Source: a virus
Lineage: Duplodnaviria; Caudoviricetes
Reading direction: 5' to 3' (one strand)
DNA length: 64,000 bases
IMG/VR virus record: IMGVR_UViG_3300014204_000116
Coordinates: 95,891-159,890 of that record
Under the pieces are notes generated by a model. That model searched no databases. It was not told where the DNA came from and saw only the letters and a list, made by a program, of their open reading frames with translations. A program made the position numbers and the translations under genes. This document shows positions 22,844 to 59,573 of this stretch, one piece after another; the first letter of the stretch is position 1; every line of letters begins with the position of its first letter.

Positions 22844-23104
22844 ATGTCACTGACAGAATACATTGTAGACAGTTTGCTACAAGAATCTCCTAATCTTGAG
22901 ACGCTGAAGAAGCACAAGGTAGCCCTAACGCCGGACGAGAAGCGGAGTTTTAAGGAGTGCAGCCAGGATCAGTCAGCCACGGCCATGAAATCGGTCGTCA
23001 ACGGCAAGACCTGGTACGCATGCTATACGCACCGAGCTTGCCAGGTTAGCCCTACCCTCAAGGGCGCTCTAAAGGCTTATCCAGAAATTGCTGCTACCGG
23101 CTAG
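22844..23104 (+). CDS. small protein with N-terminal IVDSLLQE tag (candidate internal virion protein)
   Basis: GTAGTTA motif at 22831; MSLTEYIVDSLLQE. Confidence 0.65.
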   Translation: MSLTEYIVDSLLQESPNLETLKKHKVALTPDEKRSFKECSQDQSATAMKSVVNGKTWYACYTHRACQVSPTLKGALKAYPEIAATG

Positions 23105-23118
23105 CGCGTAGTTAAGCT

Positions 23119-26100
23119 GTGACGACGTTACGCACTCAACATGTGCCACCTGACACGGGCCAAGCTTCTGACACTCCAGGGACCGCCCAGGGAGTTGCGC
23201 GTGCACTTTTAGACAGTAGTCCTGAGCTTACTAGCGCCGAAATTGGCGACATGGCCGCATCCGCTGGAATTGGCAAGGTTGTCGCCCAAATCGCCGATGC
23301 CGATCCCCCGGAGGCAGCCGACATCCGCTCACCCCGTAACTGGTTCATTACAAAATGGGACGTGATGTACGGGGGTCAGAAGATTGGATACATCACCCGC
23401 AGCAGGGATAACCCGCTACAGTTTAGACCATTTACCACGATTAATCCGGCGTCCAAGTCCTGTAACTTTAGCCGCTTACGGGACGCCCTCGCCTGGGTCA
23501 TGGTTCATCGTGTGAAAAACTGGGCGGCGAGCGAGAGGCTTGCCCAACACGCCACAGTAGAGGAATCTCACACATCGAACGAGTCCTTAATATTGGTGCA
23601 TGAGGCCGAGGAGATCCAAATGTCGGACATCTGGAAGTCAGCGAATAAGCCCCAGCTCCGCAAGGACGATAAGGGTAAGGATGTACTCCACATCCCTCAC
23701 CTGGCTGCAATTACACCGGATCAGTGGGAGAAGATTTCAGGCATTATGCGGGGCAAAGGCTACGACTCACGTGGCGCTGCTGACGCCAGCCGGGCTGTCC
23801 AATCAATGCTGCGCAGGGCAGGTGAAAGTGGAGAGGCGAGAGTTTTAAAACACGAGGATTGGGTTGATACCATTGCCAAAGTCATTGGGTTGAAAGCGTC
23901 GTCACAAGAGCTTAAGGCTGGTGACAGGGCTGCAACGGCCCGCAAGGTATTCGCACGAGCGGTCAAGAGCTGGGGATTAACTAATAACCCAGACGTGGCT
24001 GGCTATATCCTTCCGAATGGCTCGATGCTGGACTTGTCCGGTGGATCGGGGCGGCGTGCTTACGACCACCGGCAGGTTGGGTCATTCCTTGAGCCTTCTG
24101 AACAGGGGCGTGGAGCCACAGATTGCATGCACGAGTTCATGGATCTGGGGGCTATACGCTGGATGCCAGAAGGCCCAGGTATGGATATTCGCGTGCCACC
24201 CACCAAGGCGCAGTATGCCCAAATTGCCCGTATTAAGGACGAGGCGCATGGTCAGCTCTATCTCGACGTGTATTCGCCGAACTATGGCAAGGCCTACCGT
24301 GGATACGGTCCTAGCCATACCAGCCAGCGCGTCGTCAATGACATCGTCTCGTTTTACAAGACGGGCAAACTGGGGCATATGCCCGAGGTTCAGCAATTTC
24401 ACGGGATGGGAGAGTCTGAAGAGTCTGAGTTTTTTAAGTCTTTTACGTCGTCTAAGTACGCGAAAGAGATTGAATTTTGGAACATAGCCACTACTCCGAT
24501 GCTTCTTATCAGCACTCTCCGGGATCTTAAAGTTCCAGCGGCAGCCTTCGTAGAAATCAGTGTAGCACTGACAGAAGAAGTTCTTCCGAAGTTTGAAGAG
24601 GCGTACTCCGAAAATCTCCAACCGCGTAAGGCGATAGAGGCTGCAAAAGCTTGGCTCAAGGATAGAACAGCGGCTAACGCTGAAGCGGCTGAAACGGCTG
24701 ACTATGCTGCTGCGGTTGCTGCTGACCATGTCGCTTCTTATTCTTCTAGTGCTTCTTATGTTGCTTCTGCTGCTTCTTACACTGCCAGGGCTGCTCACAC
24801 TGCCCATAACTCTCAGCGGGCTTCTTACGATGCTTATGCCATTAACGCGATATTCTATTACACCGCTAAGGCAGGCCTTTCTGCCACGCGCATGGTGGAT
24901 ATCATCAAGAGAGTGGGCCACCAATATTTTGCATTCTTACCCCTGAGTAAGTCGAGTAAGGTAGCGGAAGCTGGCGAAACTTTAGATCCTGCCGAGTTCG
25001 TTAAGTCTTACCATGCGGATAAGTACGGGTCTAAGATCAGAGATTGGAGCTTGGTCTCTGAGCCTGTGGCTCTTCTTCGCATACTGGAGTCTCTCAATGC
25101 TCCGAAGTCAACCTACGTAGAAATCAACATAGCCTTGGCAGAAGAAGTTCTTCCGGTGTTTGAGAAGAAGCGTCCCAAAGATCTCCGCCCCCGAAAAGCG
25201 ATAGAAGCGGCCAAAGCTTGGTTTAAGGACAGGACATCGGCCAATGCTCAGATCGTCCTCGATGTCTCTCAGGGTGCCTGGAAGGCTACCAACGCCTGTA
25301 CTAGTTCCCCAGAACACGCCGCTTTTGCCATATATTATGCTACTGTCAGTGTTACTGCTGAGACTGTTAGCCCTAGCGGCGCTTGGACTGCTATTGATGC
25401 TGCCCATTACACTGTTGCTGACGTTATTAATGCAGGCATTCCTAAGCAACGCGTGGCAGACATCATCAGGGAAGTGGGGCGAAGTTATTTTGGATTCTTA
25501 CCCCAGGAAGGGCATGAAAAGGCAGAAGAGCCAGCCGTAGGCGAAGCTTTAGATCCTTCTGAGTTTGTTAAATCCTACACCACGGCCAAATACCAAAAGG
25601 CTATCCATGATTGGGGTACAGCTACTACTCCTGGGGATCTTAATCTCGTTCTTAAATCTCTCAAAGCTCCCAAGGCAGCTTTTGTAGAGGTTGCCATAGC
25701 ATTTGCCGAAGAAGTTCTTCCAATGGTTGAAAAGGTGTTGCCCAATGATCTTCGACCTCGGCAAGCGATAGAAGCTGCCAAAGTTTGGCTTAAAGACAGA
25801 ACAGAAGCTAATGCTCAAGCCGCTAACGAAGCTTCTGACGAAGCTCTGGCTGCTTCTGCCGATGCCGCTACTGAATCTTATACTGCCTGGAATGCTGTTC
25901 AAACTGCTGCTCGGGCTGCTAATATGGCTTGGGTTGCTTCTACCGATGATGACGCCGGGATGGTTTATAAATACGCTTCTTATATCAATTATTACACCAC
26001 CAGGGCCGGTCTCTCTAACCAGCGTGCCATGGACATCTTTAGGGAAATTGGTGGGAGATACTTTTCGTTCTTAGCCCAGAGTCCAAGCGAGGGCATGGCC

Positions 26101-27423
26101 GAAGTGATTGTAACAAATTTGCTGGATGAAGTCTTAGACCCAGCCGAGTTTGTTCAGTCCTACGCTGTGGCCAAGTACCAGAAGGAGATCGAGACTTGGA
26201 ACAAAGCTGCCACCCCGTTGGATTTTATCCACACCCTTAAAGCCCTTAAGGCTCCTAAGGCAGCTTTTGTAGAAATTAGCCTAGCGTGTGCAGAAAAAGT
26301 TCTTCCAGAATTCGAAGAAAGCTTTCCTAAGGATCTCCGGCCCCGCAAGGCTGTAGAGGCTGTAAAAGCTTGGCTTAAGAACAGAACGGGGGCTAATACC
26401 CAAGTAGCTGCTAATGCTGCTCGGGCTGCCTATGCGGCTGCCCATGCTACTTGGGCTGTTAATAGCACTAAGGCTGCTCGGATTGCTCGGGCTGCTAATG
26501 CTGCTGCTCGGGCTGCTAGTGCTGCTGCCGCTGCTGGTGCTATTAGTTATGACATTTCTGGGGATACTGCTGCGGTTGCTACCTACGCTGTTGAAGCGGG
26601 CCTCCCTAGCCAGCGCGTAATGGATATCATTAAGGAAGTGGGCCATAAATACTTTTCGTTCTTAGGCCAGGGCACCGCGAGAGGGATGGCCGAAGCAATC
26701 GTAGCAAATATGTTGGGCGAATCGGAGGGAACCGATATTCCATCCCCGGAGGAAGAGCCGCTCATTGCCGACATTTCGCCGGAGGACATTGCGCTAAGGT
26801 CTGGTATTTTGGACCGGTATGTCCAGGTAGGTGGTGACTTTGGAGATCCGTGGGTTTATGGGGGCACTTGGTACAGCGCTTACGTGGCTAAGTCTAAAAG
26901 TCGGTGGGATTGTATCTACCACATAGACGGCATGGAAGGCGAAGGCTTGTCAGATTATGATGCCGGGAGTAAGGCCGTTAAAAAGGCGTTAGAAGAGCCC
27001 CAATATGCTGCTTTGATAGCAAAACGGGCAGAAGAGCTTTTGCCGGATAGACTCCGTTCTCAGGGCTACGGCAAATATCCCGATGCTGATCCTGCTGAAG
27101 AGGCGGACACGCTGAAATGGTGCCAGCGAGAAGTATTAGACGATGCGAAGAACGAGATTGCAGATAAACTAGCGGATGAGATGAACAAGAACCGCACACT
27201 TGCTGTTTATCGTGTATCTGACGATGATTTATTTGACAATAACCCGAAGCGAATTTCTGAAGTTGTGCAGTTCCTGGGCATAACGCTGGAGGAGTGGGAG
27301 GAGATGCCTACTGTAGATAAGATAGTTGCATACGCTGACAACTACGGTTGGTACAATCTGGATCATGACCCGGTAAGGATGACAAAAGACGATCTGATCG
27401 CTAGGATAAAGGTGGAGTTGTGA
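23119..27423 (+). CDS. 1434-aa modular polyprotein with four Imm5-like repeats (candidate internal virion protein)
   Basis: Four copies of (A/T)E(E/K)VLP..E....(D/N)L.PR(K/Q)A(I/V)EA.K.W(L/F)K.RT plus Ala-rich helices, separated by Glu-rich linkers; GTAGTTA at 23108. Confidence 0.8.
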   Translation: MTTLRTQHVPPDTGQASDTPGTAQGVARALLDSSPELTSAEIGDMAASAGIGKVVAQIADADPPEAADIRSPRNWFITKWDVMYGGQKIGYITRSRDNPLQFRPFTTINPASKSCNFSRLRDALAWVMVHRVKNWAASERLAQHATVEESHTSNESLILVHEAEEIQMSDIWKSANKPQLRKDDKGKDVLHIPHLAAITPDQWEKISGIMRGKGYDSRGAADASRAVQSMLRRAGESGEARVLKHEDWVDTIAKVIGLKASSQELKAGDRAATARKVFARAVKSWGLTNNPDVAGYILPNGSMLDLSGGSGRRAYDHRQVGSFLEPSEQGRGATDCMHEFMDLGAIRWMPEGPGMDIRVPPTKAQYAQIARIKDEAHGQLYLDVYSPNYGKAYRGYGPSHTSQRVVNDIVSFYKTGKLGHMPEVQQFHGMGESEESEFFKSFTSSKYAKEIEFWNIATTPMLLISTLRDLKVPAAAFVEISVALTEEVLPKFEEAYSENLQPRKAIEAAKAWLKDRTAANAEAAETADYAAAVAADHVASYSSSASYVASAASYTARAAHTAHNSQRASYDAYAINAIFYYTAKAGLSATRMVDIIKRVGHQYFAFLPLSKSSKVAEAGETLDPAEFVKSYHADKYGSKIRDWSLVSEPVALLRILESLNAPKSTYVEINIALAEEVLPVFEKKRPKDLRPRKAIEAAKAWFKDRTSANAQIVLDVSQGAWKATNACTSSPEHAAFAIYYATVSVTAETVSPSGAWTAIDAAHYTVADVINAGIPKQRVADIIREVGRSYFGFLPQEGHEKAEEPAVGEALDPSEFVKSYTTAKYQKAIHDWGTATTPGDLNLVLKSLKAPKAAFVEVAIAFAEEVLPMVEKVLPNDLRPRQAIEAAKVWLKDRTEANAQAANEASDEALAASADAATESYTAWNAVQTAARAANMAWVASTDDDAGMVYKYASYINYYTTRAGLSNQRAMDIFREIGGRYFSFLAQSPSEGMAEVIVTNLLDEVLDPAEFVQSYAVAKYQKEIETWNKAATPLDFIHTLKALKAPKAAFVEISLACAEKVLPEFEESFPKDLRPRKAVEAVKAWLKNRTGANTQVAANAARAAYAAAHATWAVNSTKAARIARAANAAARAASAAAAAGAISYDISGDTAAVATYAVEAGLPSQRVMDIIKEVGHKYFSFLGQGTARGMAEAIVANMLGESEGTDIPSPEEEPLIADISPEDIALRSGILDRYVQVGGDFGDPWVYGGTWYSAYVAKSKSRWDCIYHIDGMEGEGLSDYDAGSKAVKKALEEPQYAALIAKRAEELLPDRLRSQGYGKYPDADPAEEADTLKWCQREVLDDAKNEIADKLADEMNKNRTLAVYRVSDDDLFDNNPKRISEVVQFLGITLEEWEEMPTVDKIVAYADNYGWYNLDHDPVRMTKDDLIARIKVEL
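24424..26667 (+). repeat. four tandem repeats of about 570 nt encoding Imm5-like domains
   Basis: Units start near 24424, 24982, 25549 and 26134; shared DNA such as GAAGAAGTTCTTCC and GCGATAGARGC. Confidence 0.85.
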
Positions 27424-27710
27424 ACAATTTGATGACTGAAAAAATTATGATACACGCGGGACAAGTGGTGAATACACTCCTGGAGCAGGGTGGTGATGCA
27501 GAGGTTGAGTATGATACTGTCGATGTGGACTCCATGCCACATACGGCCTGGATGGTTCGGGCCATAGGCTCATCGCCTACGCAATACGTAGCCAGGGACG
27601 TGGCTCATACGCCCGAACTGGCACGCCAGAGGGCGCACGAGAAGGCCCGGTCGTTAGGCATGACAATTACGCGCGAGATAGATCGCTCTAAAAGTTCACC
27701 ACGCAGTTGA
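27420..27710 (+). CDS. small protein with AGQVVNTLLEQ tag
   Basis: overlaps polyprotein stop; tag motif. Confidence 0.6.
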   Translation: MNNLMTEKIMIHAGQVVNTLLEQGGDAEVEYDTVDVDSMPHTAWMVRAIGSSPTQYVARDVAHTPELARQRAHEKARSLGMTITREIDRSKSSPRS

Positions 27711-30335: not shown

Positions 30336-30626
30336 TTACTTCTTGCCGTATTTGACGGGACTAGAAGCTGAGGGCGCTGAGGCTACCTGGCCTTTGGTGG
30401 TTTTACCACCGGCCAGCTTACCACGTTGTTCCTTGCCTTTTTTCATGGCCGACTTAGGCGTGGCACCCGGAGAGGGTTTTCCGACGCATTCCAAGGCAGA
30501 GCCAAATTCTTGTTCTGCAAGTGAATCAATCAGATCCATTGCATGAATTGGGCGAGATTCCAGGGCAGAAGTTTTCGACTCGGCCCGCTGGACCGGTTCG
30601 CCGATGAGCTGTTTTGCGAGTGACAT
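30336..30626 (-). CDS. small basic protein with tag-like motifs (LAKQLIGE, LIDSLAEQE)
   Basis: GTAATTA 17 nt upstream; terminator downstream. Confidence 0.6.
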   Translation of the reverse strand: MSLAKQLIGEPVQRAESKTSALESRPIHAMDLIDSLAEQEFGSALECVGKPSPGATPKSAMKKGKEQRGKLAGGKTTKGQVASAPSASSPVKYGKK

Positions 30627-34082: not shown

Positions 34083-34613
34083 TCACTTAGTAGGCTTGGA
34101 CCTCTTCAACCCTCGCATCCAATCGGCGACGGACTTTTTAGTGCCCTTGGAAGTTTTCTCCAGCTTTTCCAGTTTCTTTTCGGGATCTTCGCTTGTCTCA
34201 CCCTCTAGAAGTTCATCCACGAGACGCCGTGCGAGTGCTTCGAACTCAGCCTTGCCGTATTCAGCAGCCCACTGGGCAGCTCCAGCAGGGCCAAGTTTGG
34301 ATCGCATCCGGTCAGACGCTGCCCACAGATCATCTTTAGTTGCGAAACGGTGGCTCCCGAGCAGTTGGTTAATGGAAATTCCGCCTGTCCTGTCGTCCAG
34401 GAGATCGTCCTCGGGGTTAACTTCACCAGCAGGCTCACCGGGCAGTGATCCTGGTTTACTAGCTGCGGGCGGTGGGGCACCCGCGCCCGGCTTGCTAGGC
34501 GCGTCGGAGGGCTTCCACTTAAATCTAGGGTTCTTCCCTGGTAAACCCTGGTTTTCTTCCTCACCGGGTTCCAGGACGTTTTCGATTATGCCGTCTACGC
34601 TATTAGTGATCAC
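34083..34613 (-). CDS. acidic/Pro-rich protein with tag motifs at both ends (GIIENVLE, ARRLVDELLEGE)
   Basis: probable GTG start 34613 with GTATTTA 12 nt upstream. Confidence 0.6.
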   Translation of the reverse strand: MITNSVDGIIENVLEPGEEENQGLPGKNPRFKWKPSDAPSKPGAGAPPPAASKPGSLPGEPAGEVNPEDDLLDDRTGGISINQLLGSHRFATKDDLWAASDRMRSKLGPAGAAQWAAEYGKAEFEALARRLVDELLEGETSEDPEKKLEKLEKTSKGTKKSVADWMRGLKRSKPTK

Positions 34614-34669
34614 GTTCTTAAATACAGGAGAGTAATGGGCAGTAGTTACTTTAAATAGGATTGTAGACA

Positions 34670-36043
34670 ATGGCCTACAGATACACATACGTTGATTTGC
34701 TGAACGTAATCAAGGACATCGACGATACCGGCTTGAATTACGCTGGGGCGTGGAATGCCAATGCTCAGTACTTTTCAAACGATGTAGTGCTTTATAACAA
34801 TACTCGCTACATATGCTTGGCCCCAACACAGGGAAATCAGCCGACTATTACCCAGGTAAGGGATGATCATTGGTCTGCCCTGGTGTTTGTCAGCACGGGC
34901 TCCTCGGCCCAGGGGGATATAGCAACGCAGGCACTTGCAATGGCCACAGAGGCACTTGCAATTGCTGTCACTGGCACGAATTTAGGGTATCAATCATACA
35001 CAATCGGTATCACCGCATTAGACACGGCCTGGGCCGGAACAGCCCTTGCGCAGCAAGCATATGATCTCGCTGTCCAGGGTGGAGGCAGCGGTAGCAGTGG
35101 ATCTCTTTGTGAGGAAGCCTACGGCCTGGCGTTGTATGCTCTTCAAACGGCCTGGTCTGGTACGGCCCTAGCTCAGCAGGCCTACGATCTTGCCATACAA
35201 AACAGCGGCACCAGCGGGGGCACTCTTGGCGCTGAAGCTTATGCCATCGCGAACGAAGCTTTAGGTATTGCTGTCATTGGCACTAATCTAGGAGAGCAAG
35301 CTTACACCATCGGGGTTACTGCTCTTAATACGGCCTGGGCTGGGACGGCTCTTGCGCAGCAAGCTTATGACTTAGCAGTTCAAGGCGGGGGCAGTGGGAG
35401 CAGCGGATCTCTTTGCGAGGAGGCCTACGGTTTGGCCGTGTATGCCCTTCAAACTGCCTGGGCAGGCACAAATGCTGGAAATCAAGCTTATTCAGTTGGG
35501 GTTACTGCTCTTGATACTGCTTGGGCAGGCACAGCGTTGGCTCAGCAAGCTTACGATTTGGCCATTCAAGGTGGCACCGGAAGCAGCGGATCTCTTTGCA
35601 CCGAGGCCTATGACTTAGCAGTGTATGCCTTACAGACTGCTTGGACAGGCACTAGCGCAGGTAATCAATCTTATGCTGTAGCCCAGCAGGCTTACGCATT
35701 GGCGGCTATTGGTACGAATGCGGGAGATCAGGCTTATTCAGTCGGGGTTACTGCCCTTAACACGGCTTGGGCGGGGACGGCCCTTGCACAACAGGCTTAT
35801 GATTTGGCCGTTCAAGGGGGCACAAGTAGCAGTGGATCTCTTTGTGAGGAAGCTTATGGCCTGGCGTTGTATGCCCTACAAACCGCTTGGGCCGGAACTT
35901 CTGCGGCAGCTAGTGCACAAGGTGTGGCTGACACAGCTTATGGATTTTCAGTGTACGCCATCGCGCTTTCGGGCACGTCATCAGGCACATCATCACCGTC
36001 CGGTGGTGGCGTGAGCGTCTTGGAAGTGCAAGTATTCAGCTAA
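34670..36043 (+). CDS. fibre-like structural protein: N-terminal CBM5/12-like module plus Ala-rich repeats
   Basis: AWNANAQYFSNDVVLYNNTRYICL; repeated ALxTAWAGTALAQQAYDLA. Confidence 0.75.
   Translation: MAYRYTYVDLLNVIKDIDDTGLNYAGAWNANAQYFSNDVVLYNNTRYICLAPTQGNQPTITQVRDDHWSALVFVSTGSSAQGDIATQALAMATEALAIAVTGTNLGYQSYTIGITALDTAWAGTALAQQAYDLAVQGGGSGSSGSLCEEAYGLALYALQTAWSGTALAQQAYDLAIQNSGTSGGTLGAEAYAIANEALGIAVIGTNLGEQAYTIGVTALNTAWAGTALAQQAYDLAVQGGGSGSSGSLCEEAYGLAVYALQTAWAGTNAGNQAYSVGVTALDTAWAGTALAQQAYDLAIQGGTGSSGSLCTEAYDLAVYALQTAWTGTSAGNQSYAVAQQAYALAAIGTNAGDQAYSVGVTALNTAWAGTALAQQAYDLAVQGGTSSSGSLCEEAYGLALYALQTAWAGTSAAASAQGVADTAYGFSVYAIALSGTSSGTSSPSGGGVSVLEVQVFS
34925..35985 (+). repeat. internal repeats (TAWAGTALAQQAYDLAxQGG.GSSGSLCEEAYGLA)
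   Basis: multiple near-identical peptide and DNA units, e.g. GGATCTCTTTG four times. Confidence 0.85.
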
Positions 36044-37836: not shown

Positions 37837-38246
37837 AGACTATTATCACACCCTTGATACTTGCGTGCGCCCTGCTACTCTGCGGGTGTAGCTCGACGAA
37901 TAAAAACCTCATCGTGACGACTGGCACGATCCTCGGGGTTGAAGTGGCTGAGAATCCGCAAACCGGCCTTTACCAGGCTAAGCTGGGCTACGGAAGGACT
38001 GAATTTGCGCTCGTGCCCACCGGCACTAACGGAGTTACTCCCGACGTTATCATGGAAATTCGCTATCATGGATTTTTTTCTACGGAAGGTGGACTTTATC
38101 AGCGCCTTGCGGTGGGCCAGACGGCGTGTTCGCAAGTTCCCGCTGCCCTAATGTTCGGCAAGGATGAGCGGGGTAATTCTCCTACAAATTCGGTGGTGAG
38201 CATGCTGGAGAGCATGAGGGCTAAACCGTCCGCAACGAATCGTTAA
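37833..38246 (+). CDS. lipoprotein
   Basis: MKTIITPLILACALLLCGC lipobox; ATGA overlap. Confidence 0.75.
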   Translation: MKTIITPLILACALLLCGCSSTNKNLIVTTGTILGVEVAENPQTGLYQAKLGYGRTEFALVPTGTNGVTPDVIMEIRYHGFFSTEGGLYQRLAVGQTACSQVPAALMFGKDERGNSPTNSVVSMLESMRAKPSATNR

Positions 38247-38566
38247 AGCCACTTGCCTGGGCGTTTTGTAAGCTCGTTGTCGATGTAATCGATGATGGCC
38301 TGCGGATCATGGCTTATGTTGAAGCAATGGAGCCACGCAGCCACTTTTTCTTTGAGGGCATCCCCGTGAAGCTTCTTATGCTGTGGCCAATTGTGTTCCC
38401 AGTCTAAGCGGCCAACCTCTCCCTCGATGTACTCCAGGGCAAGATCCTGGGTATCAAGAACGGGATCATGATCGGGCTGGTAAGCGACAGGTGGAGGAAG
38501 TTCAGGTGGTAGCCAAGTGTCTGGCGGGCCATCCAGCAGGGTTTCGACTATGAGCCGTGCGATCAT
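38243..38566 (-). CDS. small protein with N-terminal ARLIVETLLDG tag
   Basis: tag motif; palindromic GTAGTTA motif upstream. Confidence 0.65.
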   Translation of the reverse strand: MIARLIVETLLDGPPDTWLPPELPPPVAYQPDHDPVLDTQDLALEYIEGEVGRLDWEHNWPQHKKLHGDALKEKVAAWLHCFNISHDPQAIIDYIDNELTKRPGKWL

Positions 38567-44400: not shown

Positions 44401-45775
44401 TAAAGACACGTCCGACGCTTGTTTTGCTTTAGAGACTTTAGTAAGGACTTTAGACGGGCAGGTCAGAAAAATAGGAGAATTGCAGCCTGGGCAGAAGTGT
44501 TGGGTTTATTCATTAGACACATTGAATCGAGTAGTTGCTGGAAATGCAACTGCTCTTGGGATTACGCGAAGAAGTGCAGACTTACTAGGCATAACACTGG
44601 ATAATGGGTGCACTATTAAGGTTACACCGGATCATCTGCTAATGCGCCGAGATGGCAGCTATATCCGTGCTGACAGTGTAACGCCAGGTATGTCCATGAT
44701 GCCATTTTACTTTAAGCGGAACGCGAAAGGGCGCGGTCGTGTGTTTAACCCGCACACAAATAAATTTGAATTCGTGTACAGGCTCATAGATGAGCAATTG
44801 CGGGGGGCTAAACCTCCTGGGTTCTGTATCCACCATGAGGATCTACGCAAGATAAACGATCAGCCCGGTAACCTTAAACGATTGACAAACGGGGAGCACT
44901 GGGCGCTCCACCACGATATTAAGCTCGAAGATGGGCGGGCAACCGAGCTAAAACGGCAAAAGAACCTGGCTGACTACAATGCAAAGCCCGAGACTAAATT
45001 CGCTGCCAGACTGCGCGTAAATTACGCCAGGAAATTTTCAAAAGATAGAATTACGCAGGCTATAGCAGCAATTCCGCGTCTGCTGTCCACCGAGTTTCGT
45101 GCCCAGCACAGCCTGTTTATGCGTGAGTACATGAGTGATCCAGCGACAAGATACTCCCAGATTAAAGGCCTGCTGTCCTACAACGAAGGTCGAAAAATTA
45201 AGATTACCATTGAAGATCTAGTGCGCTTGCGCGGCCAAGGGATGACGAATCGAGACATTTCTGAAATCTATGGGTGCTCTGTAAGTGTCGTAGAGCGTAG
45301 TGCAGCTAAAGCTCGGCATTTAGGTGTCAGTATGCTCATCAATTTTACGCGGTACAGAAGTAGATTCTATGCTGCGGAAAGGGTTAAAAAAGTAGAAAAG
45401 GTGTGCCAGTTGCGCGATCACGGAGCCACGGTTATCGAAGCCTGTAAAGCAGCCGGAATAACGTCTAAAACGTACTACGATTGGTCAAAGCGGCTTAACC
45501 ACAAGGTCATAAGCGTCCAAAATCTTCCACCGGAGCCTGTTAGCTGTCTACGCGTAGACATATTTCATAACTTCGCCCTTGAAGACGGAATTTTTGTGCA
45601 TAACTGCGCAGGTGCCTACTACGACGCGATTACCTCCGAGGAAAAGTTTAGCGTGAGCGTTGACAATAGCCCGTCTATTATAGGGAACAATTCGCTCAGC
45701 CCGGCTGAGGTAGAAAAACCTCCTATGGAAATTACACTGCCGATGGGATACACTAAAATAAAGTCGTTCTCATAG
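41435..45775 (+). CDS. terL: terminase large subunit with two inteins (about 694 aa after splicing)
   Basis: Walker A GSLGIGK|T, Walker B VALDE, nuclease acidic motifs [27 protein letters not shown]|C. Confidence 0.88.
41849..42919 (+). mobile_element. intein 1 (357 aa) with LAGLIDADG homing endonuclease, inserted in Walker A
   Basis: starts [17 protein letters not shown] and FAGLIDTDG blocks, ends VTHN followed by Thr. Confidence 0.92.
44420..45604 (+). mobile_element. intein 2 (395 aa) with HNH-type endonuclease and HTH-like segments
   Basis: starts CFALET, block [24 protein letters not shown], ends FVHN followed by Cys. Confidence 0.9.
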
Positions 45776-45789
45776 TAGTTAAGTGTGAA

Positions 45790-46137
45790 ATGGCAAGTAC
45801 CCGAATAGAGCTGTCGCCGTATAGCATGTTCACAAACACGCCTGCGTATCAAGGTGTGCCTGTGGAGATTGAGGGGGTGCGCCAAAACGTAATTGTATTT
45901 GGGCTGATGGTAGATGCTGTCGTAGCCAGCGCATCGGATACCACGTATAGGGTGCCCCAAGCTGCCGCAGGGCGTCTCGATCTTATCTCGGAGAAGTTTT
46001 ACGGAACAACAGAGCTATGGTGGGTATTGGCCTTGGTTAATAACCTTTCCGATCCTCTTGTGGGGGCGGCTGTAGGCCAGACAATTCGCATACCAACTCG
46101 TGATAGGATGGCCGCAGAAGGAGTTTTAAATGTATGA
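45790..46137 (+). CDS. baseplate wedge gp53/LysM-like protein
   Basis: GRLDLISEKFYGTTELWWVLALVNNLSDP..GQTIRIP. Confidence 0.8.
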   Translation: MASTRIELSPYSMFTNTPAYQGVPVEIEGVRQNVIVFGLMVDAVVASASDTTYRVPQAAAGRLDLISEKFYGTTELWWVLALVNNLSDPLVGAAVGQTIRIPTRDRMAAEGVLNV

Positions 46138-47429
46138 ATAGTAAAGATGTCACTACACTAATCCAAGATGGACAATGGGCTGAGGGAATTGTGGATGCGC
46201 TAATTGACGGAGGCGGGGCTCTCCTCGAAGACCGTATCGATGACCTGCTGGCGCGCTACGTCAACGACCAGGGCAAACCTTTGCTGGATCGCCACCAGAT
46301 TCAGGGGTGGTACCAATACGACCCTACTCCCAACAAAAAATACATCCCATGGATCATCCGAGAAGTGGCCGAAAAGCGGATGAAGCTTCCCCAGCACGGC
46401 CACGAGCTTCGAGATGCACTGCTCACGTTTGAGCGCCTTCTCCCCATCCCGGCTTACCAGGGGACGCGCGATCTTTATTCTACCGACTGGAAGGGGCTCA
46501 AGGGCATCGTGGCCCGTTACGGAGAGATGAAGAGCAAGAGTTCGCAGGAACGCGAAAAGCGCCAATCAGGGGTCAAAGTTGTGGCAAAATCCGGCAATCT
46601 TTCGTGCCTTAGGATCACAGACGTGCAGAGCCTCAACAACTGGTCATGGAAAGCCTACTCGGCTGAGAATCCCAATTGGCATGGAAAGGCGATTAAACCC
46701 GGCGATGTTAAAGATCCGTTTGAAGATAGCCTGTGGTGCACGCGGTTTCCGACCTACGCGACCACCTATCTGCAAAGCGGGCCTTTCAACATGGTTTTGA
46801 AAGATGGGTATCCATACGTGGGCCTGGTGTTCACGAAGGGTGAAGCCCAGGATTTGAACAACCACGGAATTACGACCGCCGTAGCCGAAGAAATCTGGCC
46901 GGTCGTCAAGGACGAGATTCCGAAAAATGTGACGCTTTCTCGAAATGCGAAGGTATTCGAGAACATTCGATTTTTGGAGGGAAGCGTTGAGCCTGGCACA
47001 GTGATTGAAGGCTCTGTGGACTTATCCGGCACCCGCCTGTCGGCATTGCCGGATAACTTGAAGGTTAATGGCTCGCTTGATATTTCTGGCACAGCCCTGA
47101 AGAATCTTCCCTCCGGCCTAACCGTGACCGGCACTCTGAAGATTAATGGCACGGGTATCACAGACTTGCCAAGTGATCTTCGCGTTGAAGACATGGAGTG
47201 GAGCCCGCCGCTCGATTGGACCAAGGTGAAAGCACTCTACTACCGGCTGCGCCAGGAAGAGATGAAAGTGCACTATTTGCAGCATCCGAAGCTGGGCAAC
47301 GAATCTCCCGAGGCCAAGGAACGCGAATGGATTAAGTTCCAGACCTCGTTGGCGGCATTCTTCCAGAATGACCCGGAAGTGGATAAAAACGTAAGGTCAG
47401 TTTACCGAATGGTCGGAGGCGCTAAATGA
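46134..47429 (+). CDS. tagged protein, DPTxNKKY/WCT family with leucine-rich repeats
   Basis: AEGIVDALID..LLE; YDPTPNKKYIPWI; LWCTR; LSGTRLSALPDNLKV/ISGTALKNLPSGLTV. Confidence 0.75.
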   Translation: MNSKDVTTLIQDGQWAEGIVDALIDGGGALLEDRIDDLLARYVNDQGKPLLDRHQIQGWYQYDPTPNKKYIPWIIREVAEKRMKLPQHGHELRDALLTFERLLPIPAYQGTRDLYSTDWKGLKGIVARYGEMKSKSSQEREKRQSGVKVVAKSGNLSCLRITDVQSLNNWSWKAYSAENPNWHGKAIKPGDVKDPFEDSLWCTRFPTYATTYLQSGPFNMVLKDGYPYVGLVFTKGEAQDLNNHGITTAVAEEIWPVVKDEIPKNVTLSRNAKVFENIRFLEGSVEPGTVIEGSVDLSGTRLSALPDNLKVNGSLDISGTALKNLPSGLTVTGTLKINGTGITDLPSDLRVEDMEWSPPLDWTKVKALYYRLRQEEMKVHYLQHPKLGNESPEAKEREWIKFQTSLAAFFQNDPEVDKNVRSVYRMVGGAK

Positions 47430-49003
47430 CGCTTTCTCATGAAGTAGTAGCTACGCTTCTAGGAGACGTAGGGCTACTGATTGAAGATCGCATTGATGAC
47501 CTTATTAACACGTATGGTAAGGCCCTGGTAAAGGCTGTACACGAAGTTCCAGGGGTAAATGTGGGCCAGCAACTGCGGCCTCACCTAGAAAAATGGGCAC
47601 AATTCGATCCCAATAGACGGAAGAAATACCTTCCATGGATCGTGAAACAAATTGCCCAGGAAAAGCTGAAGCCATCAGACCATAATCTCGATCATCTCAG
47701 GGATCAACTTCGTGCCTACGAGCGCTTGGTCGCAATCCCAGAATTCGAGGGTAGCCGGGACATTTTCAGCTATGACTGGCCCACGTTTGATCGAGAAATT
47801 ACTGCCAATCTTGACGTCCGTAGTCAGTCTGAAAAGGAGCGCAGGGCTAAGGAGGCTAAAAAGAAAGGCGTGGGTTCTTACGGTGGGACCGAGGGAGTTA
47901 CCAAGATTGCGGAGGCAGGCCCGTATGAGCTTTTGGAGATTAAAGACGCCGTGTCACTATCGTGGTGGTCGTGGAAAGCCTATGATCGCGAATTTAACCC
48001 AAATTGGAAACATCCGACCATAGAGCCTCCTTCACCCGAGGTTATTCGTGATCCGGCTAACCGTGGCGAGCTAATTCGTGACGGAAAATGGTGCGTTCGT
48101 GTGCCGAGTTACGGCCTTGACTACATAAAGGGTGAGCCAACAAAAGCATTCTACATGGTGCTTAAAAACGGCGGTCCTTATGTAGGGATATTGCTCAGTG
48201 ACGGCCAGTGGAAGAATTTGGATAATCGCGGTATTGATTTTGGGATAGCGGAAGAAATATACCCAGTTGTGAAAGGCATCATTGCTCAGCACAAGGCATC
48301 TGGATTTGAATTGGAATACGAAGGGGAGGTTTTTGAGAATTTGAGGTTTGTGCGCGGAGAGGTTAAAGAGGGAGAAATATTTGAAGACATAGATCTGAGT
48401 GGAGCTTCAGTTACGACATTGCCCAAAAATTGCCATTTTCGCTCATTGCGCATAGATCGGTCATCCATCGAGGTCATTCCCTCAGGAACTGTCATCAATA
48501 GCTTCTTGTCGGCGACTAAAAGCAAGCTTAGGATAGTCGAACCTGGTGTTAAGATCAATGACATTTTTGACGCGTCTTACAGTAAGCTAGAGTCGTTACC
48601 CCCAGGCATGATTTTGACCAAGTTGAAGCTTATCGGGTGTCCGATTGCTAGCTTACCCGAAAATTTGGAGGTTAAGGAGGAGTTAAACCTCGAAGGAACA
48701 TTGGTATCTGAACTTCCGAAAACGCTTAAGCTCGGTGGAAATATGACTTGGAGTGCACCGCTTGACTGGTCAAAAATAAAGGGTGCATTCTACTACAATT
48801 TTTTGCCAAGAATGCACCAGTCATTCCTATCCAGTCCCAGTATAGCGGACAGAAGCGACGAAGCAAAAGCGGCGGCTTGGAAAAGGTTCAAGGTAAAGTT
48901 GTGGGATTACTTCCAGACTGATCCTAAGATTTATTCAGAAGTTGGGCTGGTATTCACGCAAAGAACCCCGGAACCACCGGAAGATGTAAAGGAAGAAGAG
49001 TAA
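47426..49003 (+). CDS. paralog of preceding gene with more leucine-rich repeats
   Basis: VVATLLGD..LIE|DRIDDL; FDPNRRKKYLPWI; WSWKAY..NPNW; LRR units LESLPPGM, IASLPENLEV, VSELPKTL. Confidence 0.75.
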   Translation: MTLSHEVVATLLGDVGLLIEDRIDDLINTYGKALVKAVHEVPGVNVGQQLRPHLEKWAQFDPNRRKKYLPWIVKQIAQEKLKPSDHNLDHLRDQLRAYERLVAIPEFEGSRDIFSYDWPTFDREITANLDVRSQSEKERRAKEAKKKGVGSYGGTEGVTKIAEAGPYELLEIKDAVSLSWWSWKAYDREFNPNWKHPTIEPPSPEVIRDPANRGELIRDGKWCVRVPSYGLDYIKGEPTKAFYMVLKNGGPYVGILLSDGQWKNLDNRGIDFGIAEEIYPVVKGIIAQHKASGFELEYEGEVFENLRFVRGEVKEGEIFEDIDLSGASVTTLPKNCHFRSLRIDRSSIEVIPSGTVINSFLSATKSKLRIVEPGVKINDIFDASYSKLESLPPGMILTKLKLIGCPIASLPENLEVKEELNLEGTLVSELPKTLKLGGNMTWSAPLDWSKIKGAFYYNFLPRMHQSFLSSPSIADRSDEAKAAAWKRFKVKLWDYFQTDPKIYSEVGLVFTQRTPEPPEDVKEEE

Positions 49004-49007: not shown

Positions 49008-49535
49008 ATGGCATTCTTAACCGAGGCTAAAGTTGCAAAAACACTGGACATTCCGGTGAATCTTCCAGCAACGGAAGTTAAGCAGGGAGATTGGCTAATA
49101 GTGGCGACGATAAAGATCTCCTCGCCCATGAAGCTGACCTACCAGTTTATGACACTCCAAATGCTATCTTCCTCGGTGGATACATCTCTTATCGTGGCAG
49201 GGAACAAGGTGAGCCCCTCGCTGGATTTGGCATTTATCGGGCTGTATCGCAACTACCTGTCCGGGCACCCAGGAACACAGCCCGCCCTGGATGTCGTAAA
49301 GATCCGGGAGACAGACAATAGCCAATTGGACTGTATCCCGATTACTGACATTTCCGGCCAGTTTATCACTGTTCGTTTTGCGCCCCTCGTGACGTACGCC
49401 ACGGCAGGCGTGTATTCATTTATCGTGGCGAACAACATGCAATCTTCAGCCACTTCGACAATTCCACTTACTACATCAATCGATTTTAAGTTGTGTGCCA
49501 CAGGCCAAATACGCCTGGAGCTTGAGGGAAGCTAG
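49008..49535 (+). CDS. structural protein, paralog of 50237-50692
   Basis: IPVNLPATE..TAGVYSFIVANN..ATGQIR. Confidence 0.65.
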   Translation: MAFLTEAKVAKTLDIPVNLPATEVKQGDWLIVATIKISSPMKLTYQFMTLQMLSSSVDTSLIVAGNKVSPSLDLAFIGLYRNYLSGHPGTQPALDVVKIRETDNSQLDCIPITDISGQFITVRFAPLVTYATAGVYSFIVANNMQSSATSTIPLTTSIDFKLCATGQIRLELEGS

Positions 49536-49538: not shown

Positions 49539-50240
49539 ATGAACGCTGAGGGTATCGTTTCAGCTTTACTCAGCGAGGCCCGCATCACTCCAAAAGAGCT
49601 GGTGAAGGAAATTCCAGGGATTTTGGCCCACTACACCTATACGCCAGCGTTCGGTGGGGGCAGGTGGTCTGTAGAACGGCAGGAAGGTGGTGATAGCCAC
49701 TACATCGGGGAGATCTGGCATAATTACATTACAGATGAGTGGTCAGCTATGGAGGTTGCGCCTTGTGGGCGACAACCTACACACTGGTACCCTCCCCTGT
49801 CGAGATCTCGTGTTAGGCCAAGTCGTCAGCAAGCGGCCAATGATTTGTGGGAACTTTACAGCGAACAGTTGCATAGCAAAAACCGTGTGATAGAAACTGC
49901 GAAGGGTGAAGAAGCGGGAATTACGCCGGACAAATTTGTGAAGTCTTTTGGCATAGCTCGACTTTTTCGAAGATACCGCTTCACGGACAGACAGGGGGCG
50001 ATTGAGCAGGGTATTTTTGCCCCGCCTGATGAGAATGTGTACGTTGATATCAGGAGTGATAAACACCCCGGAGAATACGTATACATCGGTCAACTAAGCA
50101 AAGTTGGCGCGTTTTGGAGGCCTATCCTGGTTCTGGACAAAAATGGATTTAGCAGATCAGCACACAGTTTTAAAGGGTACAGATCGCGCGAAGAAGCTGC
50201 AACTGATCTGGAGGCTATGTATCTAAAGATGAATAAATGA
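49539..50240 (+). CDS. tagged two-domain protein
   Basis: MNAEGIVSALLSE|ARITPKELVKEI and internal EE|AGITPDKFVKSF; two related halves (YIGEI..SRQQAANDL, YIGQL..SREEAATDL). Confidence 0.7.
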   Translation: MNAEGIVSALLSEARITPKELVKEIPGILAHYTYTPAFGGGRWSVERQEGGDSHYIGEIWHNYITDEWSAMEVAPCGRQPTHWYPPLSRSRVRPSRQQAANDLWELYSEQLHSKNRVIETAKGEEAGITPDKFVKSFGIARLFRRYRFTDRQGAIEQGIFAPPDENVYVDIRSDKHPGEYVYIGQLSKVGAFWRPILVLDKNGFSRSAHSFKGYRSREEAATDLEAMYLKMNK

Positions 50241-50692
50241 GTGCTGTTTACATTACACCCGAGCGCTACGCCACAATTGCGAATCTTCCGGTTAGCTTGC
50301 CGGAGGCTGAACTTCGCCGTGGTGCGTATATTCAACTCGCAGTGTTTAAGCTAGCTCCGACACAAAAAGCAGCGATTCGAGTCTTAGCACTGACGGTTAC
50401 AAAAATTTTGACGCCGGGGGTAATACCGGACAACATCAACTCGACATTTGGGCTGGCAACTGTAGGTATTTATGGGCCAATCAATTTGATCTACGGTTGC
50501 ATGTTGTGCAGCCCAATTGTCAGCGTATCGGTTGGTGGCGTTGGAACGGCTGCACTTAACCCGTATACAAACCATGTCATAGACACACCTGGGGTATACG
50601 TGGCGGCAGTATTCAATAACACGGGCCGAACGTCAGACTATGCTATTGACATGTCAGTGTGCGTGACCGGAGTCGTGAAATTTTTTAAATGA
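50237..50692 (+). CDS. structural protein, paralog of 49008-49535
   Basis: LPVSLPEAE..TPGVYVAAVFNN..VTGVVK. Confidence 0.65.
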   Translation: MSAVYITPERYATIANLPVSLPEAELRRGAYIQLAVFKLAPTQKAAIRVLALTVTKILTPGVIPDNINSTFGLATVGIYGPINLIYGCMLCSPIVSVSVGGVGTAALNPYTNHVIDTPGVYVAAVFNNTGRTSDYAIDMSVCVTGVVKFFK

Positions 50693-54920: not shown

Positions 54921-56114
54921 ATGAACTTTGCCCTACAAGGATTATACAAGGTGTTGGTGGTGGACGCCAGGACTAAACGCGTTCTTTGGGAGCAGCCTGA
55001 GTGGCGCAAGAACTTGATCTTGAACGACGGATTTGAACGTATTGCTACCAACTTTATTTGCGAAAATTTTTTGTACGCTTACGCCGGAACGGGCACCCGT
55101 TCAAATAACACTGATTCCTCGCTTACAGGGGACACAGCGGCGTGTGATAGCCTTGGAAATGTTACCCTGAATGTGGGTAGCACGGTTGTTTTCGATCTGG
55201 GGACACCAGGGGAAATAGCCAACATAATAAAGTGGACCAATACAGGATTTGAAGGGCGTATTTTGACAACGCCAACATCTCGAACAGCTACTATCGTGCC
55301 CGTTGGATCTTCGCAAACTGGGTCATTTGTCCTTTATAAAACCAATCAGTACGAGCTTCAATCCGAGACTGCTCGGACATCCACTTATTTTCCCGCTTCT
55401 CCCTGGTGCGGAACCGGCATAGTAGGGAATGAGGTTGTCCATCAGCGAACATGGGATTTTGCGGAAGAAACCACTTTGACGACCTACCACGAGATGGGAG
55501 TTGGGTGGAGTATGACCGCATTGTCCGCTAACACCACATTTTCAAGATTCTTGTTGCACTCGCCCGTGTCTGTGGATGTTGGGCAGCAGTTGAGGCTCAT
55601 ATACCAGTTACGGTTGGTTATGGTGCCATCTGCTGCAACAGCAAAAACGGCAAACATCGTTGGGATGTCTAGCACTACCGGCTACGAACAATTTACTTAC
55701 CTGGGTCTATCTAAAGTTTTGGCTACAGGCGTTACATCCTATGCAGATGCCGCAGGCTATTCCAATGAGCCGTGCCAATCTACGGGGATCAGAATTTTTG
55801 TATCGCCGGATAACACGGCTATTTCAACCGGTTTGGGCGCGACTCCCGTGGATCGTGTTTCCGGTGCTTTTGGGAAGGATGTGACATCCCCTGGCTATGT
55901 GGCTTATAGCGGGCAGCGCATTAAGGAGGTTACCCTGGCGGTGGGCGAGGGTAACATGACAATAGGCAGCATGGGTGTAGGCAGCGGAACCGGATATGTG
56001 GCGCGCGACTATGGGCTTGTTTTCGTGTTTGATACACCACAGGTTAAGGACTCCTCGAAGACACTCAACTTACAGTTCTATTGGAATTGGAAGAGGGTGT
56101 TACAGGCAGATTAA
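54921..56114 (+). CDS. paralog of preceding structural protein
   Basis: YKVLVVDARTKR..WRKNLILNDG..AGTGT..EMGV..GQQLRLIYQL. Confidence 0.7.
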   Translation: MNFALQGLYKVLVVDARTKRVLWEQPEWRKNLILNDGFERIATNFICENFLYAYAGTGTRSNNTDSSLTGDTAACDSLGNVTLNVGSTVVFDLGTPGEIANIIKWTNTGFEGRILTTPTSRTATIVPVGSSQTGSFVLYKTNQYELQSETARTSTYFPASPWCGTGIVGNEVVHQRTWDFAEETTLTTYHEMGVGWSMTALSANTTFSRFLLHSPVSVDVGQQLRLIYQLRLVMVPSAATAKTANIVGMSSTTGYEQFTYLGLSKVLATGVTSYADAAGYSNEPCQSTGIRIFVSPDNTAISTGLGATPVDRVSGAFGKDVTSPGYVAYSGQRIKEVTLAVGEGNMTIGSMGVGSGTGYVARDYGLVFVFDTPQVKDSSKTLNLQFYWNWKRVLQAD

Positions 56115-56506
56115 TGTACCAGTTAGACGAAATCATAGGAGCGGCTAACTACTGGCTGGATACCAGGGGAACGGCCCACACTGCCAGGAGCCATGTTGAA
56201 TGGGCCTGCAAATATCTTCAGTGTCCGCAGCCTCCACCGAATGATGACGCGGGATTCAGCCCCATACGACGGCGTATGCTGGAAAAGGGATGGGTCAGGG
56301 TTACGATCCCAGGCTATAGGATCAGCGTTGATTACTTCCAGATAAACAATGCACAGCTAGACTGGCTTAAAGAACAAGCCGATTCACGCCAAGTGCCCGT
56401 AGTCGATAATGAAGAAAACGTAATTTATACACCGGGCCAAAATGAAAGTTTAGCCCGGTGTATTGTAAGCACTCTGCTAGGAGAATATCCGGGTATTGCG
56501 CGATGA
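56114..56506 (+). CDS. hypothetical protein with C-terminal ARCIVSTLLGE tag
   Basis: TAATG overlap; YWLD..H..WA..MLEKGWVRV. Confidence 0.65.
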   Translation: MYQLDEIIGAANYWLDTRGTAHTARSHVEWACKYLQCPQPPPNDDAGFSPIRRRMLEKGWVRVTIPGYRISVDYFQINNAQLDWLKEQADSRQVPVVDNEENVIYTPGQNESLARCIVSTLLGEYPGIAR

Positions 56507-56812
56507 CGTCGTAGCGTCGTAGACTTCCACGGCGAACTTCTTTCCTATCGTCATCAGAGTTTGTGCCCCGGCGCTCTTGGCCTTAGATAGCTGGACGTAC
56601 ACTCCCGTCCGCATGTCTGTCACAGCCGCGATCTTGATGGCATCATTCTCAATCTCCCACGCGCCGATGTTATTTCGGGGGATGTCTTCACCCTTAAAAA
56701 GTTGTTGGCAGATTTTGTACAGCTCATGGATGGCTTGCTTGCCACCGACTTGCTGGCTTTTTGATATGCTGTCCAGGACTACCTGGTGATGGGGAGGAAT
56801 AACAATGTTCAT
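56477..56812 (-). CDS. hypothetical protein
   Basis: last gene of minus-strand trio; start at MNIVIPP. Confidence 0.55.
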   Translation of the reverse strand: MNIVIPPHHQVVLDSISKSQQVGGKQAIHELYKICQQLFKGEDIPRNNIGAWEIENDAIKIAAVTDMRTGVYVQLSKAKSAGAQTLMTIGKKFAVEVYDATTSSRNTRIFS

Positions 56813-57917: not shown

Positions 57918-57959
57918 AGTGCGAATAAACGTGAATTCTATCGTTCTTAATAGAAGAAC

Positions 57960-59054
57960 ATGAAAGCTCAGCAGATAATCGAAAAATTTGGACTTCGAAG
58001 CACATCCCTGGCTGAAGGCGTCGTGGGCCAGAAGATGGCCGAGGAGTGTATCCAACGATTTGTAGACAGTGATCCTAGCGGTCGGGGAAAATACCTTCTC
58101 TGGATGTTTTACCAGGCTGGCGGGGGTAAGGAAAAGTTGGACCTGTCCAGGCAATGCTGGTTTGAAGGGTATAAGGATGATCCGCCTTTACGCGCAAAGA
58201 TGAAAAAGCGCTGGATCAGCGAGCGTATCGCCGGTTTTACAGACGAGGACACCGGAGAAGTGCTTAAGCCGGTTAGTGCCGAAGAAGCAGAAAAATTATG
58301 GATCGGGGCAGAACCTCAACTGAGGGACGATTTCATCTATGGAGACGAGGGTCATATTGCTAATGGTGGCTTTGGATTTTTTCAGACATGGGAGGCTTCG
58401 CGGGGCCGGTATGACCGTGTTGTGGCGGCAGTGGGCTTATTCCACAAGTTTCGGAGGTCACTCCGCGACCGGGGAATATGCACCGATTTGACTATCGATA
58501 AATATCCTACTTTGGCCGATCTTGCGTCGGCTATGGCTGACGTAATCGTAACTAAGCTCCAATTGGCCTATGACCACGATGTCGTATATGACGATTCTTG
58601 GCTTATGGTCGTGTGCCCCTACACGATTGGCTCAAGTATCCGCTATGGCATTTCTAAATGGTGCACTTCAAACAAGTCGGAGCTGGTTCGGATGTCACGG
58701 GGAGCACCTAATAGATGGGCTGAATACGCCGGAAAGTCGTCTTTGTACTACTGCCGGTTTAAGGGCATCGAAGGCATCGGCGCGTCGAGCAGCGTGGCTA
58801 TCCAGGTCATGTGGGATACCTGTTTATTCGATAGGACATGTAGTGATGGCGCTGCACTAGACAGGGTGTCCCACGCGAAATACTGGGATGCCGAGGACGT
58901 GCTCCACACCATGTCGGACTATCTCAAGGATCTTTCGAGCAATCCGGCAGTAGCAACCGGGCACTTGGCGGCGTTTAAGGAAGCTTTCTACGCTATTGTG
59001 CGCCACTACTCAACGTTCAATATGCAGCGTGTCGTAACCAGCCGGTGTAGTTAG
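57960..59054 (+). CDS. DPSxxGKY/WCT family protein (distant relative of 46134 and 47426)
   Basis: SDPSGRGKYLLWM..RYGISKWCTS; GTTCTTA 17 nt upstream. Confidence 0.65.
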   Translation: MKAQQIIEKFGLRSTSLAEGVVGQKMAEECIQRFVDSDPSGRGKYLLWMFYQAGGGKEKLDLSRQCWFEGYKDDPPLRAKMKKRWISERIAGFTDEDTGEVLKPVSAEEAEKLWIGAEPQLRDDFIYGDEGHIANGGFGFFQTWEASRGRYDRVVAAVGLFHKFRRSLRDRGICTDLTIDKYPTLADLASAMADVIVTKLQLAYDHDVVYDDSWLMVVCPYTIGSSIRYGISKWCTSNKSELVRMSRGAPNRWAEYAGKSSLYYCRFKGIEGIGASSSVAIQVMWDTCLFDRTCSDGAALDRVSHAKYWDAEDVLHTMSDYLKDLSSNPAVATGHLAAFKEAFYAIVRHYSTFNMQRVVTSRCS

Positions 59055-59057
59055 GGC

Positions 59058-59573
59058 GTGACAAGATTTGCTGTAAAAATTGTAGACGTTTTGCTCGAAA
59101 CTGGAGAAGCGGACCAGGATTATGACCAGGGTTTCTACGATTTACTCGTCGAAGAGCTTGAGCAAGCAGGAATCACCGGGGCGCGCCACAAAGAATTCGA
59201 CAAGTACCAGGGAGTTTATCTATTTATTCCCCATGTCGGAAAGTTCTGGACTGTCGGCGACGACGGATTGTCGAAGACTCTCCAGCTTGAGGATGAGCCT
59301 GACCGGCAATTCAATATTGGTTACTTCACTTACAACCAGGGTCAGGACACGGCCATAGAAGACGTCAGCGAACTCATCGAGTTTTGCAAGCGTAAGATCA
59401 TTCGTGCCCAGGGGCATCAAATCGCCATAAATGCGGTTGACTCGGCCATGGATCAAATGTCTGCAAGTGGTGAGCCCGTAAGCGGTAAGACCAAAGCTAC
59501 CATGATTCCAGTCACGCCTTCCGTTGGCCGATCAGGGATGGGGCAGGCTCCATCCCATTTTCCAACTCGTTAG
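59058..59573 (+). CDS. protein with N-terminal AVKIVDVLLE tag
   Basis: tag motif; GTAGTTA 11 nt upstream. Confidence 0.65.
   Translation: MTRFAVKIVDVLLETGEADQDYDQGFYDLLVEELEQAGITGARHKEFDKYQGVYLFIPHVGKFWTVGDDGLSKTLQLEDEPDRQFNIGYFTYNQGQDTAIEDVSELIEFCKRKIIRAQGHQIAINAVDSAMDQMSASGEPVSGKTKATMIPVTPSVGRSGMGQAPSHFPTR

Follow-up and report, generated by a model that had tools for sequence, protein, structure and literature searches.

The closest described counterpart of the system considered here is the capsid-targeting sequence of bacteriophage T4, which is carried by the internal proteins (IP) IPI-III and by the propeptides of gp24, Alt, gp22, gp67/68 and gp21 (Mullaney & Black 1996; PMC9026906; PMC3012670). 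The first 10 residues of IPIII are enough to bring about encapsidation (PMC9026906; PMC3012670). In this 10-residue T4 tag, targeting depends on residues 4 and 7 and processing on residues 8 and 10, and the prohead protease gp21 cleaves after L/I-x-Glu (PMC9026906); Asp at position 10 blocks cutting (PMC9026906; PMC3012670). The internal proteins of T-even phages are diverse anti-restriction proteins that have only this tag in common (PMC9026906; PMC3012670). Here we describe a comparable short helical tag, shared by otherwise unrelated proteins, in 64,000 nucleotides of DNA (the window) that come from an uncultured giant phage related to T4 and form the last 64 kb of a 159,890-bp IMG/VR contig (G000), the completeness of which is rated 72%. 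The principle proposed for the motif is already known, being that of the T4 capsid-targeting sequence, here expanded and used also in linkers (PMC3012670, PMC9026906). Our preferred reading, which we consider probable, is that the tag belongs to a T4-type system of capsid targeting and propeptide cleavage, much expanded and serving also to link the units of polyproteins.

A first-pass annotation of the window had proposed the consensus A-x-x-[IV]-V-x-x-L-L-x-[ED] and had named 13 strong and two weak instances. All of these are present in open reading frames (ORFs) at or close to the places where they had been put, and the motif is real; the consensus as printed, however, is too strict, with three exact matches in the window. 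The recurring long form consists of Ala, two variable residues, a hydrophobic pair, two more variable residues and a Leu/Met-Leu/Ile pair, with Glu following 0-1 residue later, and the short form is one helical turn less (Ala-x-x, hydrophobic pair, Gly, Glu). All instances are accommodated if the pattern is loosened to two hydrophobic pairs, spaced by one helical turn, and a following Glu. Genes were called with a script based on codon usage and ribosome sites, both for the whole contig and for three relatives of 223-238 kb. The motif is carried by 12 genes in the window and by one that straddles its start, and by about 18 genes and two polyproteins in the whole 160 kb; in 10 of the 12 window carriers it lies inside the first 35 residues. 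The instances are as follows, in window coordinates, GTAGTTA being an upstream signal that is taken up below.

1..1329, plus strand: C-terminal 442 residues of a 521-residue tagged protein (G000 95654-97219), its tag lying 215-250 nucleotides before the window start
22853..22885, plus strand: N-terminal tag, residues 5-15 of the 87-residue protein 22841-23104; GTAGTTA precedes the gene
23185..23214, plus strand: weak N-terminal tag ending in Asp, residues 23-32 of the 1434-residue Imm5-like polyprotein 23119-27423; GTAGTTA 11 nucleotides before the GTG start
about 25525-25560, plus strand: shorter internal linker tag, near residue 803 of polyprotein 23119-27423
26098..26130, plus strand: internal linker tag between Imm5-like units, residues 994-1004 of polyprotein 23119-27423, directly before the conserved start of the next unit
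26689..26721, plus strand: internal tag after the last Imm5-like unit, residues 1191-1201 of polyprotein 23119-27423
27456..27485, plus strand: N-terminal tag, residues 13-22 of the 96-residue protein 27420-27710
30597..30626, minus strand: short 10-residue N-terminal tag of the 96-residue protein 30336-30626, in the register of the T4 IPII/IPIII tag
34569..34595, minus strand: weak tag near the N-terminus, residues 26-34 of the 195-residue protein 34083-34670
34197..34232, minus strand: tag near the C-terminus, residues 147-158 of protein 34083-34670; truly internal, since no start codon is nearby
38531..38560, minus strand: N-terminal tag, residues 3-12 of the 107-residue protein 38243-38566; GTAGTTA upstream
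46179..46229, plus strand: double N-terminal tag, residues 16-32 of the 431-residue leucine-rich-repeat (LRR) protein 46134-47429
47435..47485, plus strand: double N-terminal tag, residues 4-20 of the 525-residue LRR protein 47426-49003
49545..49577, plus strand: N-terminal tag, residues 3-13 of the 233-residue protein 49539-50240; one of the three exact consensus matches
56453..56485, plus strand: C-terminal tag, residues 114-124 of the 130-residue protein 56114-56506, with six residues after the Glu
57966..57983, plus strand: weak short tag, residues 3-8 of the 364-residue protein 57960-59054
59070..59099, plus strand: N-terminal tag, residues 5-14 of the 171-residue protein 59058-59573; GTAGTTA 11 nucleotides before the start

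N-terminal (the majority), internal and C-terminal placements, all three of which had been anticipated in the first-pass annotation, are thus found in the window.

The position of the motif sets it apart from the background of chance matches. A position-specific scoring matrix trained on G000 proved over-fitted to the polyprotein linkers and gave few matches in relatives, and tests based on regular expressions were used instead. In the proteome of the 160 kb the loose expression has 20 matches, against 8.7 ± 3.0 in 500 within-protein shuffles (~2.3-fold); the expression also picks up a few clearly unrelated segments such as signal peptides. The motif is ~11 times denser in the first 25 residues of G000 proteins than elsewhere (9 matches in 5,075 N-terminal residues compared with 6 in the remaining 37,953; odds ratio 11, p = 1e-5), and in the three relatives this comparison yields odds ratios of 2.9-4.6. 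When the flanks of 42 related loci, obtained by a portal search, were scanned crudely for ORFs, 15 N-terminal matches were found against 0 on reversed sequence. Instances differ freely in how they encode the conserved Leu, Ile, Val, Ala and Glu, indicating selection on the peptide and not on a DNA repeat; these codon differences also rule out a start-region element. With the hydrophobic core defined so as to include no acidic residue, a Glu is found within the next two residues in 25 of 40 N-terminal cases but in only 21 of 82 internal ones.

Similarity between carriers, as judged by BLAST, is confined to the 46134/47426 pair and to the Imm5-like units. The attached domains had been described as unrelated apart from a family comprising 46134, 47426 and 57960; the first two are indeed paralogues (32% identity), but the likeness of 57960 to 47426 is confined to a short stretch at the N-terminus (E = 0.002) and its membership does not stand.

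The paralogous LRR proteins 46134 and 47426 are encoded directly after the terminase. Proteins of the 47426 family have 39 homologues in metagenomes, at 30-54% identity, and the tag is kept in every one with an intact N-terminus. Glu20, Asp21 and Arg22 are invariant in an alignment of 37 sequences. The AlphaFold2 model of the 47426 protein built on this alignment has a mean predicted local distance difference test score (pLDDT) of 90; the values are 52 for residues 1-10 and 58 for residues 11-20, and then at least 84, rising to 91. The model shows the tag as a loose helix lying clear of the fold, from which it is divided at the invariant Glu. The LRR assignment of 46134-47429 rests on a match to PDB 8z5u (E = 7e-17), and it disposes of the idea that 46134 and 47426 are the capsid and vertex proteins, which their sizes, resembling those of T4 gp23 and gp24, might suggest. 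The repeats of the pair (46134-49003) resemble those of PDB 8z5u and of IpaH-type effectors, and the family is widespread in related metagenomic phages.

That the tag is portable, as had been claimed, is borne out by comparison with relatives, in which stand-alone tagged proteins of the window reappear as tag-flanked modules of multi-module proteins. The 87-residue protein 22841-23104 is homologous to the last module of a 517-residue, four-module protein of one relative (G001), in which tags mark the N-terminus and two of the module junctions and a degenerate one precedes the last module. In G001, too, the 107-residue protein 38243-38566 is matched by the C-terminal half of a protein, immediately behind an internal tag, and modules from outside the window likewise recur beside tags in multi-module proteins of relatives. 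The linker tags of the two Imm5-like polyproteins end 1-2 residues before the point at which the conserved domain begins in stand-alone Imm5-like genes. Elsewhere on the contig, outside the window, a 591-residue protein (G000 46222-47997) has an internal tag at residues 252-262, followed at residues 328-434 by a domain of the 2H phosphoesterase type, similar to the anti-CBASS protein Acb1. Binders and enzymes directed at the host (Imm5-like, LRR and Acb1/2H-like phosphoesterase proteins), together with many orphans, seem to make up the cargo.

The 591-residue protein is encoded within a cluster of seven small or medium genes (G000 42400-47997), most of them with N-terminal, internal or short tags. 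The arrangement recalls the variable internal-protein loci of T-even phages.

There is no credible instance of the tag in positions 1-22800 of the window, which hold nucleotide-metabolism genes (ThyX, nucleoside deoxyribosyltransferase). In so far as this stretch is early-expressed, this agrees with the first-pass annotation, which had not noticed the tag in early genes and had taken equal frequency in early proteins as the observation that would count against it. The recognisable tail, sheath, fibre and baseplate proteins are likewise untagged, again as had been noted. The portal, baseplate-hub and fibre genes, and no fewer than six tagged genes, have the sequence GTAGTTA 8-15 nucleotides ahead of their start codons, and tagged genes are enriched behind it (odds ratio 4.9, p = 0.008). 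GTAGTTA is absent from positions 1-22800 and is conserved in relatives, before 20 genes in G003 and 11 in G001. As a candidate late promoter or translation signal it would, so placed, leave almost no leader. About 33 sites occur in G000; those in the window are:

22831, 23108, 30275 (minus strand), 31471 (minus strand), 34642, 38572/38583, 45775, 53634 and 59047

Evidence for a T4-type head comes partly from G000 and partly from its relatives. G000 encodes a sheath, a tube, a baseplate and a T4-type portal (Portal_T4 profile, 65 bits). In all four relatives of 93-100% completeness an S77 protease gene, the family of T4 gp21, lies directly upstream of a gp23-type capsid gene (Gp23 profile, 96-112 bits), and a relative that is only 67% complete has neither. 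Scans of 30 G000 proteins beside the portal and at the contig start, with Pfam and PHROG, revealed no hidden protease or capsid gene. In G001 and G003 the protease and capsid genes are located just beyond the homologues of the first genes of the G000 contig, and those of G000 most likely sit in its missing 66 kb. The 525-residue LRR protein is on record, in identical form, in a contig of 225,968 bp.

A coiled-coil, Ala/Pro-rich region of ~300 residues, scaffold-like in appearance, follows the protease of the relatives as the C-terminal part of one fusion protein. The fusions are encoded at:

G003 7692-9200 (L072): S77 protease fused to the scaffold-like region
G004 91784-93427 (L064): S77 protease fused to the scaffold-like region
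G001 234235-235851 (L095): S77 protease fused to the scaffold-like region

The N-terminus of the protease is a hydrophobic-hydrophobic-Glu peptide, as in T4 gp21. Small head-module proteins encoded just upstream of it carry short tags, one of them twice, and in diverged relatives a small gene adjoining the portal has retained a short tag at its N-terminus.

In the T4 genome (NC_000866) the N-termini of IPII/IPIII, gp24, Alt, gp22 and gp21 are all amphipathic peptides that end in hydrophobic-x-Glu. The tags of G000 end in the same way, corresponding with the gp21 cleavage pattern (PMC9026906), and a T4-type head module that includes an S77 protease is present in the clade; the likeness to T4 drawn in the first-pass annotation is thereby partly supported. 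Three short G000 tags of 10-11 residues are hydrophobic at positions 7-8 and small at 9 and have Glu at 10-11, in the register found in T4's internal proteins, and the propeptide of T4 gp24 resembles the long tag. In both systems a short N-terminal amphipathic peptide is common to unrelated, fast-evolving proteins, and it ends in L/I-x-Glu, at which the S77 protease of T4 cuts. The portal of G000 and the capsid and protease genes of its relatives are also of T4 type, and T4 Alt and gp21 offer a parallel for processing at C-termini. The differences lie in the tag and in its use. The main tag of G000 is one helical turn longer and has another consensus; it has ~12 carriers in the window, and ~18 plus two polyproteins in 160 kb, whereas T4 has about 8; it is reused as a linker within polyproteins; and its predicted cargo is not uniformly small and basic.

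The comparison with phiKZ-type phages, also made in the first-pass annotation, fits less well. These are likewise giant phages in which many head-internal ejection proteins are cut after Glu by a distant relative of gp21 (gp175/gp245), and they too have paralogues with conserved N-termini. However, the propeptides of phiKZ, 201phi2-1 and SPN3US are mostly >100 residues long, and their cleavage motif is a small residue-x-Glu, with A/S/G at P3 (PMC5694885, PMC10052503). The likeness is weaker for these reasons, since the G000 tags span 10-20 residues with hydrophobic residues at P3 and P4; moreover the protease of the relatives, unlike that of the phiKZ type, matches Pfam S77 directly. The polyvalent proteins (Iyer et al. 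2017, PMC5512222) are similarly large and multi-module, occur in the context of virion genes and are predicted to be packaged, injected and processed into units, but they combine disparate enzymatic domains, often with a peptidase of their own, whereas here repeated binders are separated by a peptide used genome-wide. Encapsulin cargo-loading peptides are also short and portable and address unrelated cargo to the inside of an HK97-fold shell, but are usually C-terminal and Gly/Ser/Leu-rich, bind the shell protein and are not cut off. The G000 tags are mostly N-terminal, the shell of the clade is a gp23-type phage capsid and there is no encapsulin context.

Taken by analogy with T4, the tag would work as follows. 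It would fold as a short amphipathic helix whose hydrophobic pairs stand at i, i+1 and i+4, i+5 (a single pair in the short form), and this helix would dock the protein on to the scaffolding core while the prohead is being built. A prohead protease of the T4 gp21 type (S77) would then cut after the terminal Glu of hydrophobic-x-Glu. Removal of N-terminal tags would free the cargo inside the head, to be ejected with the DNA; cutting at linker tags would divide the Imm5-like polyproteins and the other multi-module proteins into units; and C-terminal tags might be trimmed or kept. Docking to the core, cleavage after Glu, presence in the virion and ejection are all steps that we infer.

Several observations weigh against this mechanism. 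C-terminal tags do not fit simple propeptide removal, and some tags (23185, 38531 and G000 44603) end in Asp or have no Glu. Hydrophobic-x-Glu is itself a common tripeptide. Pfam profiles for the S77 protease and the Gp23 capsid found no match on the 72%-complete G000 contig, which has no scaffold gene either, so the presence of the protease is deduced from the relatives that have it and from the incompleteness of the contig. The tagged proteins are almost all blank in Pfam and PHROG, with no known virion annotation, and their charge is mixed, with no pattern like that of the T4 internal proteins, which are basic. The nearest cultured phages have capsids only ~30% identical to those of the clade. 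Evidence that the tags form genome-specific dialects is modest, with 27 of 71 assigned correctly compared with 17.8 expected and with 8 of 300 label shuffles doing equally well.

Alternatively, the tag may stay in place as a helix by which its carriers dock on some common partner that is not the prohead core; the portal, a chaperone, a host hub protein or an adaptor of the tail or baseplate could be that partner. Many tagged genes of the window do stand among tail-fibre and baseplate genes, yet the recognisable products of such genes are themselves untagged. The C-terminal and Asp-ending tags would suit a helix that is retained, as would the invariant residues just after the LRR-family tag if the helix were part of a functional surface; in the AlphaFold2 model, however, the tag is not packed on the fold. 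The coupling of Glu to the core only at N-termini, the use of the tag in polyprotein linkers and its presence on head-module proteins and on the protease of relatives also favour the head, and we regard docking elsewhere as unlikely.

Less likely still is that the tag is a processing signal only, that is, a site at which the prohead protease or another protease separates modules or trims ends, with no addressing function. The linker positions in the two polyproteins and in the multi-module proteins of G001, and the hydrophobic-x-Glu ending, are what such a signal would require. A cleavage site needs only ~3 residues, though, and here 8-11 are conserved with helical periodicity; most instances lie within 10-20 residues of the N-terminus, where cutting alone achieves little; and in T4 a short peptide does both jobs (PMC9026906). 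That the motif is functionless, arising from chance, from composition or from a repeat in the DNA around start codons, is very improbable: the modest enrichment over shuffles and the stray signal-peptide matches of the loose expression are outweighed by the strong N-terminal bias in four genomes, the free codon variation, the conservation of the tag in 30-50% identical homologues and the lack of any match on reversed sequence.

The T4-type capsid-targeting and cleavage reading can be extended to a more general proposal, which we put forward tentatively, giving it slightly less than an even chance. A genome-specific address peptide, placed at N-termini, between modules or at C-termini, may serve as a general loading and cutting code by which each genome ships 15-20 unrelated host-directed proteins in its capsid, among them LRR binders, an Acb1-like enzyme and, via tagged linkers, ~19 Imm5-like units, the peptide drifting together with the scaffold-protease fusion. 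If so, the system would surpass in size and modularity every capsid-cargo system so far described for a T4-type phage, and the tag would be a ready-made handle for protein delivery, by which foreign proteins could be loaded into capsids. On the T4-type reading itself the tag would be a label, readable in sequence only, for the ejected proteome of an uncultured clade of giant phages, would pick out unannotated candidate anti-defence effectors and would explain how the giant Imm5-like polyproteins are deployed. The T4 capsid-targeting principle would then appear old, flexible and scalable, with N-terminal, linker and C-terminal uses and a dialect for each genome. Should that reading be wrong, a conserved docking helix on ~15 unrelated late proteins would still point to an unknown common partner.

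DNA and protein searches against cultured phages gave only remote baseplate matches and no close phage. Single-protein patterns turned up no close relatives of the tagged proteins in IMG/VR, and searches of cultured phages none either.

Some further features of the window lie beside the tagged genes. The large terminase upstream of the LRR pair (41435-45775, plus strand; 1446 residues) is interrupted by two inteins, the first with Hint and LAGLIDADG domains (about residues 147-428) and the second with Hint/intein-splicing, HNH and helix-turn-helix domains (about residues 993-1390). The tagged 233-residue gene is flanked by two small paralogues on the plus strand, 49008-49535 and 50237-50692 (23% identity, E = 7e-9), which stand upstream of a gene for a 982-residue protein and two tail-fibre genes. 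Further away, at 4730-5155 on the plus strand, a 141-residue protein has an N-terminus that resembles a type IV prepilin leader followed by a hydrophobic helix.

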